Of a stretch of DNA of 2,578 bases, positions 179 through 1,462 are shown piece after piece (the stretch's first letter is position 1; each line of letters begins with the position of its first letter). The position numbers were made by a program, and so were the translations under genes. Source of the DNA: Patescibacteria group bacterium (lineage in GTDB: Bacteria > Patescibacteriota > Patescibacteriia > Magasanikbacterales > GWA2-37-8); the NCBI GenBank assembly GCA_004321885.1, contig SCQK01000021.1, positions 1 through 2,578 on the forward strand. Reading direction: 5' to 3'. Under the pieces are notes generated by a model, which saw only the letters and a list, made by a program, of their open reading frames with translations, was not told the DNA's origin and did no database searches.

Positions 179-1126
179 ATGTCACATACACACATTGGAA
201 AGGAGGATTGGTCGTGCATTGCCCGCATGCTGAAAGCGGGGCACGGTTTTTCAGAAATAGCCCGCACACTCGGGAAGCACCCGAGCGCCTTGAGTCGGCA
301 TGTACGTGCACATGGCGAACGGGAAGGATATGACGTTCGCGAGGTGCGCCGCACCAAGCGCATGAAACGGATCGCGGCCATGAAAGGCATCCGCGTCGTG
401 AAAAGCGCACTCCTGCGTTTCGTCACACAGGAGCTCCAGGATCATAAATCCCCGGAGCAGATATCGGGGATCCTGGCGCGAAGGCATATCACGCTTGCCG
501 CAAGCACGATATATCGGTATCTCAATGAGCGGGCACCGCATCTGAAACGGTATCTGCGATCACACAAAGGCAAGTATCGCAGGAGGCGAGGCGCCAAACA
601 GAGAGAAAAGGCCAGAGAAGAAGCAAAGAAGCGCCGCATTGACGAGCGGCCGGATGTCGTAATCCGCCGAGGGCGGATTGGGGACTTTGAGGGAGATACT
701 CTGATGGGTCGGGACAAGCGAGTGCGTATTGTATCGTTCGTCGATCGCAGGAGCGGATATCTCATCGCTTTCCTCCTGCCCAAGATGAACGCACGGCTTC
801 TGACAGACCTTGCCCTTTCGCATTTCCGGCGTATTGCATACAAGAAAAGAAAAACGATCACTTTCGACAACGGCACGGAATTCAGCGACTGGGAGCGGCT
901 CGAAGCACGCTCCGGCATGACCGTATATTTTGCGTATCCGTATCATGCCTGGGAACGGGGAACGAATGAGAATACAAATGGGCTCCTGCGCCAATACCTC
1001 CCCAAATCGCTCGACTTCAACACCATCACTCCCGGAGAATTGGCCTGCGTTGTTCGCAAGCTCAACCGGCGAGAGCGCAAGCGTCTCAAATTCCTCAGTC
1101 CCGAAACTGTGTTCCGGCGAAAATGA
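179..1126 (+). CDS. IS30-family DDE transposase. The ORF track starts at TTG 143, but ATG 179 fits the family N-terminus better.
   Basis: The translation matches the IS30 transposase (InsI) pattern. There is an N-terminal HTH ([35 protein letters not shown], compare IS30 EEKASVFELWKNGTGFSEIANILG). It has SPEQISGIL (IS30 SPEQISGWL) and DFEGDTL (IS30 HWEGDLV). The DDE region reads TFDNGTEF ... [31 protein letters not shown] (IS30 [27 protein letters not shown]), and the C-terminus is [12 protein letters not shown] (IS30 RPRKTLKFKTPKE). Similarity was recognised by eye from memory of the family, not by a search. Confidence 0.9.
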   Translation: [315 protein letters not shown]

Positions 1127-1130
1127 AAAT

Positions 1131-1146
1131 TGTGCGATTAGAGTGC
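1131..1146. repeat. Candidate IS right inverted repeat core (IRR)
   Basis: It is the inverted match of 134..149 and lies 5 nt after the transposase stop codon, as is typical for IS30-family elements. Confidence 0.4.
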
Positions 1147-1177
1147 TAATCCAGGAGTCGCCGAATTTTTTGAGCGA

Positions 1178-1224
1178 GGACGGCTCGGCAGGAGGGGGTG
1201 AGGGGAAGGAATGCCGAGCCGTCC
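1178..1224. repeat. Perfect 13-bp GC-rich stem (GGACGGCTCGGCA / TGCCGAGCCGTCC) around a 21-nt G-tract loop, flanked by direct GAGCGA hexamers.
   Basis: 1178..1190 is the exact reverse complement of 1212..1224. The loop 1191..1211 is GGAGGGGGTGAGGGGAAGGAA. GAGCGA sits at 1172..1177 and 1225..1230. Confidence 0.8.
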
Positions 1225-1240
1225 GAGCGAATCCCGCCGC

Positions 1241-1257
1241 CCGCGCCGAAGGCGCGG
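1241..1257. repeat. 7-bp perfect GC hairpin CCGCGCC-GAA-GGCGCGG
   Basis: Direct reading: the stem is 1241..1247 / 1251..1257 with loop GAA. Confidence 0.7.
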
Positions 1258-1260
1258 AGA

Positions 1261-1347
1261 GCCTCGCAGAAAAATTGCCTCTCATCTTTTGATTTTGCGC
1301 GCGCCCGATTTTTCTTTTTAGAAGGTAAGGCAATTTTTCTGCGAGGC
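1261..1347. repeat. Perfect 19-bp inverted repeat (GCCTCGCAGAAAAATTGCC ... GGCAATTTTTCTGCGAGGC) with a 49-nt spacer containing an alternating GCGCGCGC tract.
   Basis: 1261..1279 is the exact reverse complement of 1329..1347. The spacer 1280..1328 contains GATTTT-GCGCGCGC-CCGATTTTT. Confidence 0.85.
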
Positions 1348-1348
1348 A

Positions 1349-1395
1349 CAGCCGCCGCTTTGCGGCGGCTGGTCAGCGTAGATTTCGCTTTTTTG
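1349..1395 (+). terminator. 10-bp GC stem-loop (CAGCCGCCGC-TTT-GCGGCGGCTG) followed by a small 4-bp stem and a T6 run. It is terminator-like on the + strand, but the T-run is offset.
   Basis: The stem is 1349..1358 / 1362..1371 with loop TTT. AGCG(1375..1378)...CGCT(1386..1389) is followed by TTTTTT 1389..1394. On the minus strand no U-run follows the hairpin. Confidence 0.4.
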
Positions 1396-1420
1396 ATTTG
1401 TGTATCAGATTTGGTAAAAT
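1393..1420 (+). promoter_or_regulatory. Sigma70-like promoter TTGATT-N16-TAAAAT oriented toward the SET-domain gene
   Basis: The -35 is at 1393..1398 and the -10 at 1415..1420 with a 16-nt spacer, in AT-rich DNA directly after the terminator-like structure. It would give a leader of about 150 nt containing the repeated motif copies. Confidence 0.3.
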
Positions 1421-1462
1421 AATTTCAAAAGTTTGAGGATGTTCTAAATACGCAGTCAGCTC

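Follow-up and report, generated by a model that had tools for sequence, protein, structure and literature searches.

What does a long, perfect inverted repeat do between two genes of a patescibacterial genome? The question was raised by contig SCQK01000021.1 of a Patescibacteria group bacterium (Magasanikbacterales; assembly GCA_004321885.1), of which positions 1 to 2578 of the forward strand were analyzed (this whole stretch of 2578 nt is referred to below as the window). The inverted repeat sits in the 415-nt gap between an IS30-family transposase gene and a gene encoding a SET-domain protein. A first-pass annotation, made from the letters of the window, placed two arms of 19 bp with a 49-nt spacer at positions 1261–1347 and suggested the ends of a miniature transposable element, a recombination site, or a long RNA stem. 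The repeat is real, with somewhat different dimensions: arms at 1261–1280 and 1328–1347 form 20 of 20 pairs around a spacer of 47 nt. Comparison with related loci identifies it, with good support, as stem P3, the central hairpin of a larger repeat element of ~300 bp, which is non-coding, occurs in multiple copies across the Candidate Phyla Radiation (CPR), and is tied to serine recombinase genes. The window carries a solo, partly decayed copy of this element, in which helix P1 is lost and which is abutted by an IS30-family insertion sequence. P3 probably acts through intrastrand base pairing, most likely in the trailer of a transcript.

Inverted Repeat and Architecture of the Element

Approximately 2e-7 inverted repeats of this kind (spacer ≤100 nt) are expected in 2.6 kb, in agreement with the earlier claim that the repeat lies far beyond chance. 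The alternating tract reported in the spacer was located as GCGCGCGC at 1297–1304, with GATTTT on either side at 1291–1296 and 1307–1312; the GCGCGCGC core is conserved in the family and the flanking GATTTT motifs in many copies. The proposed RNA folding gave −40.2 kcal/mol on the plus strand (z = −6.3) and −37.7 kcal/mol on the minus strand (z = −7.2), and on either strand 0 of 200 shuffles were as good. An exact search with the 19-mer arm returned 28 stretches among one-genome-per-species contigs, three of which look like chance matches, and 112 stretches in metagenome contigs; none was found in viral contigs. The arms are therefore neither unique nor unconserved, as the first-pass annotation had allowed they might be: the 19-mer recurs, almost always in the same conserved context. 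In total, ~135 copies of the family were retrieved (designated by locus, L), and about five 19-mer matches appear to be due to chance (~4 expected in 596 Gb).

The relatives match the minus strand of the window. This strand was taken as the family orientation, being the direction in which a recombinase open reading frame (ORF) reads into the element in the autonomous arrangement. The unit is ~270–300 bp long, contains no conserved ORF, and has the following order on the minus strand: promoter module, P1 5′ strand (CCCGCCGCC), P2, P3, P4, P1 3′ strand (GGCGGCGGG), and P5. Helix P1 closes P2, P3, and P4 into a four-way junction. The features of the window copy are as follows.

1156–1458, minus strand: whole element, solo (recombinase-less) copy of subfamily A; blastn against related loci covers 1178–1458, ends set by copy comparison
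1178–1224, no strand: hairpin P5, arms 1178–1190 and 1212–1224, 13 of 13 pairs, 21-nt loop (repeat search)
1233–1244, minus strand: P1 3′ strand of the closing helix (GCGGGCGGCGGG on the minus strand), from comparison with L015, L017, and others
1241–1257, no strand: hairpin P4, CCGCGCC-GAA-GGCGCGG, covarying across copies
1261–1280, no strand: P3 arm 1, arm B in family orientation, ...CTGCTCGGC in other copies (repeat search, alignment)
1281–1327, no strand: P3 spacer, 47 nt, with the GCGCGCGC core at 1297–1304, A/T tracts, and a small internal palindrome
1328–1347, no strand: P3 arm 2, arm A in family orientation, GCCTCGCAGAAAAATTGCC(T), which holds the 19-mer used for searches
1350–1370, no strand: hairpin P2, AGCCGCCGC-TTT-GCGGCGGCT; alternative pairing P2 sequences GTGCCGC/GCGGCAC exist
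1393–1420, plus strand: outward sigma70-type promoter, −35 TTGATT, spacer, extended −10 TGGTAAAAT (promoter scan, with TG)
1421–1458, plus strand: terminal segment from the −10 box to the unit end, corresponding to the last codons of the ORF of the second recombinase family in subfamily A relatives

Near 1372–1376, 6 nt (CCGCCG) of the P1 5′ strand that other copies possess are missing from the window; consequently, P1 and the four-way junction cannot close here. The same CTCG-opposite-CTCG motif is present at the base of P3 and of P5, and the P3 spacer contains phased A-tracts. The P5 loop is purine-rich on the plus strand and forms a mirror repeat of the CCTCCCC..CCCCTCC type; as a pyrimidine or purine mirror repeat, it contains anti-Shine-Dalgarno-like or Shine-Dalgarno-like runs. 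In L047, the P5 hairpin is interrupted by a group II intron (549–1157, minus strand; Rfam RF02005, 131 bits; RF00029). Among bacterial group II introns, some (class IIC) insert next to stem-loops, and the position of this intron hints that P5 acts as a stem-loop structure.

The best Rfam 15 matches in the window had E = 0.64 and 1.2, far below the gathering scores, and Rfam gave no match to the element in L016, L014, L047, and L148. ARAGORN found no tRNA or tmRNA in the window. A coding role of the repeat was rejected: the two ORFs over P3 (1146–1349, minus strand; 1198–1422, plus strand) had no Pfam match, similar peptides in relatives (PSRKIAF..FARA) merely reflect the conserved DNA, and the reading frames through P3 are not conserved because the spacer flips.

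Base Pairing Conserved between Copies

Sequence comparison between copies supported the base-paired stem. RNAalifold analysis of 22 diverse copies recovered P3 with a 2-nt internal loop, P4, and part of P2. On this structure, 93.9% of the paired cells were complementary, and changes on both sides were observed at 17 of 28 pairs, including compensatory changes at 12 of the 19 pairs of P3. None of the 500 partner shuffles reached the observed values, and sliding the partners by 1–3 columns reduced the paired fraction to 45–56%. P4 occurs in the variants CCGCGC/GCGCGG, CTGTTC/GAACAG, and CTGCCC/GGGCAG, with both-side changes at four of six pairs. Divergent copies found with a hidden Markov model (L008b, L007b, L029, L031, and L095b) have arms that differ at many positions and still pair, such as GCCAGCAAAAAAGTTTTCTT/AAGAAAACTTTTTTGCTGGC in L008b; the P5 stems vary even more than P3 and retain complementarity. 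The pairing of P3 is thus maintained between copies.

The window is the only copy with perfect arms among 77 unique copies. Its second arm alone reads ...CTGCGAGGC; the other 76 read CTGCTCGGC or CTGCTTGGC, which gives a conserved 2 × 2 TC/TC mismatch three pairs from the stem base. Since nearly every other copy has this mismatch, the perfection that drew attention to the window is an exception in the family, and it seems to have arisen secondarily, one arm having been corrected to match the other. An attempt to assign the functional strand by comparing G·U pairs with A·C mismatches gave contradictory signals and was abandoned.

Orientation of the P3 Spacer and the P5 Loop

The whole P3 spacer has one orientation in ~70 copies and is the exact reverse complement in ~30. 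The P5 loop (CCTCCCCTTGAACCCCTCC or its complement) is likewise found in both orientations, being reverse-complemented in about one third of the copies, and all four combinations of spacer and loop orientation exist. Loop flips, truncations, and interruptions are known behaviors of long palindromes in DNA. In ~25 pairs of orthologous loci, the orientation of the P3 spacer was the same in all, so there is no sign of active P3 switching, and phase variation of the spacer was rejected as an explanation. Thus, both orientations at one locus, as an inverton would have, were absent for P3 among these pairs; known inverton segments are ~100 bp or longer, compared with 47 bp for the spacer. The P5 loop, by contrast with P3, differs in orientation between orthologous loci that are ~92% identical (L069 and L087 vs. 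L074), which indicates a recent flip.

The first half of the element in L003 (493–600), up to the spacer TGCGCGCGCC, is fused to a 3′ fragment of a recombinase gene at the same 10-mer, which encodes ...RLRAPSG... within the recombinase fragment; L136 is identical. This hybrid looks like the product of recombination through the shared GC-alternating tract.

Copies, Ends, and Hosts of the Family

Blastn similarity of the relatives to the window extends over 1178–1458, and the ends of the unit were set by comparing copies. The promoter-side end, ...GTTCTAAATACGCAG(C), was set from subfamily A copies with unrelated flanks. The P5-side end was placed in the window by homology to ...TTCGGCGGCTA, where pairs of copies diverge; it is defined as ...GGCGG(N)CTA by seven copy pairs with different flanks. 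L005 and L025, from one Magasanikbacteria metagenome-assembled genome (MAG), are identical inward from TGGTG and unrelated outward. The unit therefore runs from GCTGCGTATTTAGAAC or TGGTG... to ...GGCGGCTA, and these ends are not inverted repeats of each other. No consistent target-site duplication was found at the true ends in copy pairs with known flanks; a possible 5-bp match was seen in L004 only. Two subfamilies differ in the promoter module, the window belonging to subfamily A. Solo copies, which lack a recombinase but have both of these sharp ends, are dispersed over intergenic DNA, and the nucleotide identity is 80–90% across distant CPR lineages.

The named hosts are mostly MAGs of CPR/Patescibacteria (Saccharibacteria, Veblenbacteria, Magasanikbacteria, Azambacteria, and Zambryskibacteria), some with multiple copies (L004 twice and L026; L005 and L025; L008 twice and L010). 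Some copy-bearing MAGs (L008, L010, L013, and L027) are labeled Gammaproteobacteria, Enterobacterales-type, or Methylomirabilis; the local context there, with tRNA arrays and a CPR-type recombinase, is CPR-like. These could be mis-binned contigs or cases of real transfer outside CPR. No match to the element was detected in phage, plasmid, and viral collections, and no account of the element or of these CPR recombinase units was found in the searchable literature.

Many 19-mer matches lie within a few dozen bases of a contig end, recombinase-carrying contigs typically start 480–640 nt upstream of the recombinase, and the window’s own locus, which is contained in metagenome SRR8426592, begins in an independent assembly at about window position 1423. 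Such a pattern is typical of an assembly-breaking repeat. Approximately 12 copies are truncated, fused, or interrupted within the P3 spacer. Insertions were also recorded: a palindromic insert of ~100 nt replaces P2 in L018 (6537–6636), and inserts of ~35 and ~110 nt lie within the P3 spacer of L040 and L077. In all loci with two copies (L004, L038, L092, L096, L119, L121, and L122), the copies are face-to-face, with P5 ends inward and promoter ends outward, 1.7–6.9 kb apart. The two copies of L004 (2279–2550 and 4354–4625) are 99% identical and enclose two membrane-protein genes, with a recombinase just outside; a pair of this type could be a composite or invertible segment.

Association with Serine Recombinases and tRNA 3′ Ends

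The family is physically tied to two families of serine recombinases and to tRNA 3′ ends, and the element starts at a breakpoint that these arrangements share. A large serine recombinase (Resolvase PF00239, Recombinase PF07508, and Zn_ribbon_recom PF13408) adjoins ~13 copies. This first family has >7800 homologues, the best 120 of which are 65–86% identical to the query, and weak matches to CcrB, XisF, CcrC, and CcrA were below the cutoffs. In the recurring layout, the element is followed by a fragment of the last ~45 recombinase codons reading toward the element, the promoter of the recombinase gene, the complete gene directed away from the element, and a tRNA gene encoded on the other strand, the 3′ end of which overlaps the last codons of the recombinase. 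The tRNAs are Val, Phe, Lys, Ile, Arg, and Gly. A second family, ~25% identical to the first, is found with subfamily A in the same layout, again with an inverted duplicate of its 3′ end; in L139, a gene of this family reads into the element. A recombinase of either family stands beside ~20 of ~135 copies.

The breakpoint TGGTG, the complement of the CACCA end of the tRNA, is common to three types of junction: recombinase 3′ end/TGGTG/tRNA antisense (L016), recombinase 3′ fragment/TGGTG/element (L016), and unrelated flank/TGGTG/element (L009 and L025). In relatives, attP-, attL-, and attR-like junctions thus share a single breakpoint; the window has only the attL-like type, at the subfamily A end (~1458). 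In L008 and L047, a long recombinase ORF continues across the breakpoint into the element. In L149, a real tRNA-Leu occupies the element’s usual place, and in seven of nine solo copies near tRNAs, the tRNA is on the promoter side and converges on the element. The recombination-site suggestion of the first-pass annotation is therefore relevant only indirectly: the breakpoint, as judged from relatives, lies ~110 nt from the inverted repeat, where the element ends. Since the element starts exactly at the junction in relatives, it corresponds to the DNA just across the recombination breakpoint from the recombinase gene. The element would accordingly be the flank across the crossover site, and the solo copies may be dispersed or left-over copies of that flank. 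The recombinase-linked form, a possible autonomous parent, has the P5-side end and the TGGTG breakpoint in common with solo copies. In the window, tblastn with both recombinase families gave no significant match and no remnant.

An inverted copy of the last ~45–120 codons of the gene itself precedes recombinases of both families (L005, L016, L029–L031, L062, L080, L148, and L152; L057, L096, L122, and L125). In the first family, the antisense T-arm of the tRNA gene supplies the last ~8 codons of the intact recombinase gene (PRVGFEPT*). The layout suggests a gene able to flip, or hopping between tRNA ends.

Outward Promoter

A plus-strand promoter consisting of TTGGAT, 17–18 nt, TGn, and TAAAAT (or TAAAGT, CAAAAT) is present in both subfamilies and in most of the 116 unique upstream sequences. 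It ends 30–40 nt short of the element edge and is directed away from the hairpins. Genes on the promoter side run with it in ~13 loci and against it in ~10, and those on the P5 side are equally mixed; therefore, the element is not a regulator dedicated to a single gene. In the window, it is the SET-domain ORF (1542–2108) that the promoter faces; this ORF lies 120–160 nt downstream and may be transcribed from the promoter.

Possible Function of P3 and Rival Explanations

The reading we consider probable is that P3 belongs to a recombinase-tied CPR element and acts through intrastrand base pairing, likeliest in a transcript, in which the element would form a multi-hairpin trailer. Where the recombinase reads into the element, P3 would lie in the 3′ trailer of the recombinase transcript, and its stem of 20–22 bp could stop or stabilize the transcript or offer a site of RNase III type. 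Pairing in a transcript is favored because a 47-nt loop disfavors cruciform extrusion from duplex DNA, because the fold is a multi-helix junction of the RNA type, and because the position of P3 in the trailer reproduces the int-attP-sib geometry of lambda, with a stem that suits RNase III. The spacer flips and the perfect arms of the window are presumed by-products of template switching or gene conversion between arms. The window copy itself probably does no more than place hairpins downstream of the IS30 transposase gene and direct a promoter toward the SET-domain gene.

Several observations weigh against this reading. Scans of both strands revealed no terminator at P2–P5: P3 has a 47-nt loop, and T-runs are missing after it as after every other hairpin. 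The intact gene is directed away from the element in most recombinase-linked loci, where only the 3′ fragment reads into it. Three recombinase-linked loci (L148, L152, and L030) lack P2–P4, so that P3 is dispensable for the role of the module beside the recombinase. The window plus strand, opposite to the family orientation, folds better in 69 of 83 copies, and a conserved U·G at the P4 base favors the other strand. The compensatory changes could have arisen from gene conversion between arms rather than from selection. Moreover, this reading does not account for the spread of solo copies and the origin of their sharp P5-side end, no target-site duplication having been found, and a role at the RNA level is purely what we infer.

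That the 87-bp unit is itself a foldback or miniature transposable element with the arms as terminal inverted repeats, as first suggested, is very improbable and already contradicted. The perfect arms and the many copies of the arm sequence elsewhere would fit it, but conservation continues past both arms in every copy (~105 nt beyond one and ~110 nt beyond the other), the true ends at ~1156 and ~1458 are not mutual inverted repeats, and the arms of the family are imperfect. No direct repeat was found at 1261 or 1347 (flanks ...gcgcggaga and acagccgcc...), nor was the arm seen outside the P1-P2...P4 context of the four-way junction, save for the chance matches mentioned above. What stands of the mobile-DNA suggestion is that a short, non-coding, multi-copy repeat behaves like mobile DNA; this is the ~300-bp element and not the 87-bp unit. 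An origin as a free-standing family of structured non-coding RNA genes (small RNA or ribozyme-like), with P3 as a functional RNA helix and mobile DNA incidental, is unlikely. It would account for the four-way junction with its long hairpin, the strong covariation in P2, P3, P4, and P5, and the high sequence conservation over distant CPR lineages, and seven of nine tRNA-adjacent copies lie just downstream of a same-direction tRNA, making co-transcription possible. Yet the sole conserved promoter reads out of the structure and none reads in, neighbor genes on either side show no apparent preference in orientation relative to the element, truncations and insertions are common among the copies, and some recombinase-linked copies have no P2–P4. 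Reverse complementation of the P3 spacer and P5 loop in many copies would also alter the RNA loop sequences, the strand signal is unclear, and Rfam gave no match.

A role at the DNA level has a similarly small probability, whether as an accessory or architectural recombination site (a cruciform, or a two-armed binding site for the recombinase or a directionality factor) or as a programmed mini-invertible switch. A duplex or cruciform site predicts a spacer conserved in both orientations, as observed, and P3 lies 60–230 bp from the inferred crossover point of the serine recombinase; the CTCG/CTCG mismatch motif kept at the bases of P3 and P5, the phased A-tracts of the spacer, and the hybrid junction of L003/L136 exactly at the spacer TGCGCGCGCC also agree with it. 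However, 47 bp is far below the length of known recombinase-inverted segments, a loop of 47 nt disfavors cruciform extrusion, the ~25 orthologous pairs agree in spacer orientation, and P3 is missing from some recombinase-linked copies. The arms, moreover, covary instead of staying fixed, which points to pairing rather than protein recognition. It is likewise improbable that P3 is functionless, a selfish or neutral palindrome in a mobile repeat whose arms are kept alike by intramolecular gene conversion or template switching. Consistent with such a palindrome are the loop flips in two independent hairpins, the “corrected” arms of the window, unlike those of 76 other unique copies, the frequent truncations and insertions within P3, its dispensability in L148, L152, and L030, and arm-B transitions without strand asymmetry in a hand tally from the copy alignment. 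Nevertheless, repeated conversion should erase the 2 × 2 TC/TC mismatch, which is present in nearly every copy; the short P2 and P4, poor substrates for arm-to-arm conversion, covary as well, and spacer motifs are conserved even where the arms have diverged.

Beyond the favored reading of P3 as a pairing stem, a bolder and rather doubtful proposal is that the four-way junction and P5 are a cis-acting nucleic-acid partner of the serine recombinases that ties expression or site choice to the DNA arrangement. In one version, the module may act as a retroregulator of the sib type, or may be a structured mimic of a tRNA end that partners a recombinase directed at CCA ends. In another, the recombinase gene, flanked by an inverted duplicate of its 3′ end, may flip between reading into the module and reading into the tRNA. 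If a partner of this kind exists, solo copies would place neighbor genes under the same control and under a portable promoter.

Comparison with Known Systems and Significance

The element works most like the Correia/NEMIS and BOX repeats and lambda sib, and fails the defining tests of a classical miniature inverted-repeat transposable element, an intrinsic terminator, and an inverton. In phage lambda, sib lies across attP from int and mediates retroregulation. The CPR element resembles this arrangement in being a hairpin-rich segment across the crossover point from the recombinase 3′ end, in that the recombinase transcript would include it in one DNA arrangement and lose it once recombination has taken place, and in the ~20–22-bp stem, a size for cutting of the RNase III type. 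It differs in that the enzyme is a large serine recombinase and not a tyrosine integrase, the target is the tRNA 3′ CCA end, and the element is much larger (four-way junction and P5), with an antisense outward promoter and >100 solo copies; its processing is hypothetical.

Correia/NEMIS (Neisseria), BOX, ERIC/IRU, and RUP are short, non-coding intergenic repeats that form long hairpins when transcribed; such repeats can act as sources of outward promoters and as substrates of RNase III. Correia elements are bounded by 26-bp terminal inverted repeats, duplicate a TA target, and carry an integration host factor site. Like repeats of the Correia/NEMIS type, the element is short, non-coding, multi-copy, intergenic, and hairpin-forming, with an outward promoter, and like BOX it is modular with subfamilies. 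In contrast to Correia elements, its ends are not inverted repeats, no duplication was found, a four-way junction lies within it, and it is physically connected with serine recombinase genes and tRNA ends.

The recombinase has the three domains of the phiC31, Bxb1, and TP901-1 integrases, SCCmec Ccr, Tn4451 TnpX, and XisF. The sharp breakpoint common to the junction types is what attP, attL, and attR of integrative elements with large serine recombinases would give. Unlike in those elements, the unit is very small (~2 kb), the breakpoint coincides with the last codons of the recombinase and the CCA end of many tRNAs, the gene lies between its 3′ end and an inverted duplicate of that end, and a solo module is dispersed. 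Small hairpin-associated inversions (“flip-flop” loops) are known from plastid non-coding DNA. As there, the whole inter-arm segment is exactly reverse-complemented, recurring independently in copies; the difference is that paralogs of a bacterial repeat are the copies that differ by such flips, that two hairpins within one element are affected, and that in P5 the flip is also seen between ~92%-identical orthologous loci.

The genomes of CPR/Patescibacteria are tiny and generally regarded as poor in mobile elements. A structured repeat of ~300 bp that recurs widely and breaks assemblies would matter for the study of mobile DNA and for the assembly and annotation of CPR genomes, as do its outward promoter and its link to two families of small serine-recombinase units at tRNA CCA ends. 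The family is also a natural system in which to test loop inversion mediated by hairpins and how the expression of a recombinase might depend on the integration state. For the window, the practical message is modest: it contains an ordinary, decayed, recombinase-less copy beside an IS30-family element.

Genomic Neighborhood of the Window Copy

The IS30-family insertion sequence spans 129–1152. Its transposase is encoded by ORF 143–1126 (NF033563, 220 bits with a cutoff of 80; HTH_38 and rve domains), and candidate terminal repeats, which in this family would be 20–30 bp long and near the ORF ends, were found at 129–149 and 1131–1152 (local alignment score of 12, with 1% of shuffles as good). 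The right end of the insertion sequence is 3–4 bp from the P5-side end of the element. The G+C content is 52–60% over ~110–1400 and ~40% on either side. The gap that holds the inverted repeat also contains the perfect 13-bp hairpin (1178–1190/1212–1224), two short GC hairpins, and the promoter-like site at 1393–1420 on the plus strand; the SET-domain protein beyond it was identified by PF00856 (E = 7e-11). Positions 62–80 and 1405–1423 were rejected as long terminal repeats of the insertion sequence, their score of 23 being within the shuffle range (maximum of 26). A tie between the element and the IS30 transposase of the window was also rejected: an IS30-like gene (32% identity) was seen at L012 alone, where it flanks the opposite side of the element. 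The module also adjoins other DDE transposase genes in L012 and L149.

The motif TGCTAA[T/G]NCAGG occurs three times in the window (1144–1155, 1464–1475, and 1543–1554; also 1463–1489 vs. 1542–1568), with 0.07 expected. The first copy overlaps the right end of the insertion sequence; together with the second, it forms a 13/14 direct repeat around the element. A role of this 14-bp direct repeat, TGCTAATYCAGGAG (1144–1157/1464–1477), as an att core was rejected; the motif is absent from all 146 other loci and is thus local to the window. The direct repeat is probably related to the IS30 end, and the motif could be an IS30-end-like target sequence or a regulator site for the SET gene. Downstream, a 95-aa ORF (2218–2505) without a Pfam or NCBIfam match is followed after 5 nt by another ORF (MSEIDSIHWKKFEKFILKIGCE..., 2511–2578) that runs off the window; the pair resembles an antitoxin/toxin couple of the HicB/HicA-like type, a likeness that no profile supported.

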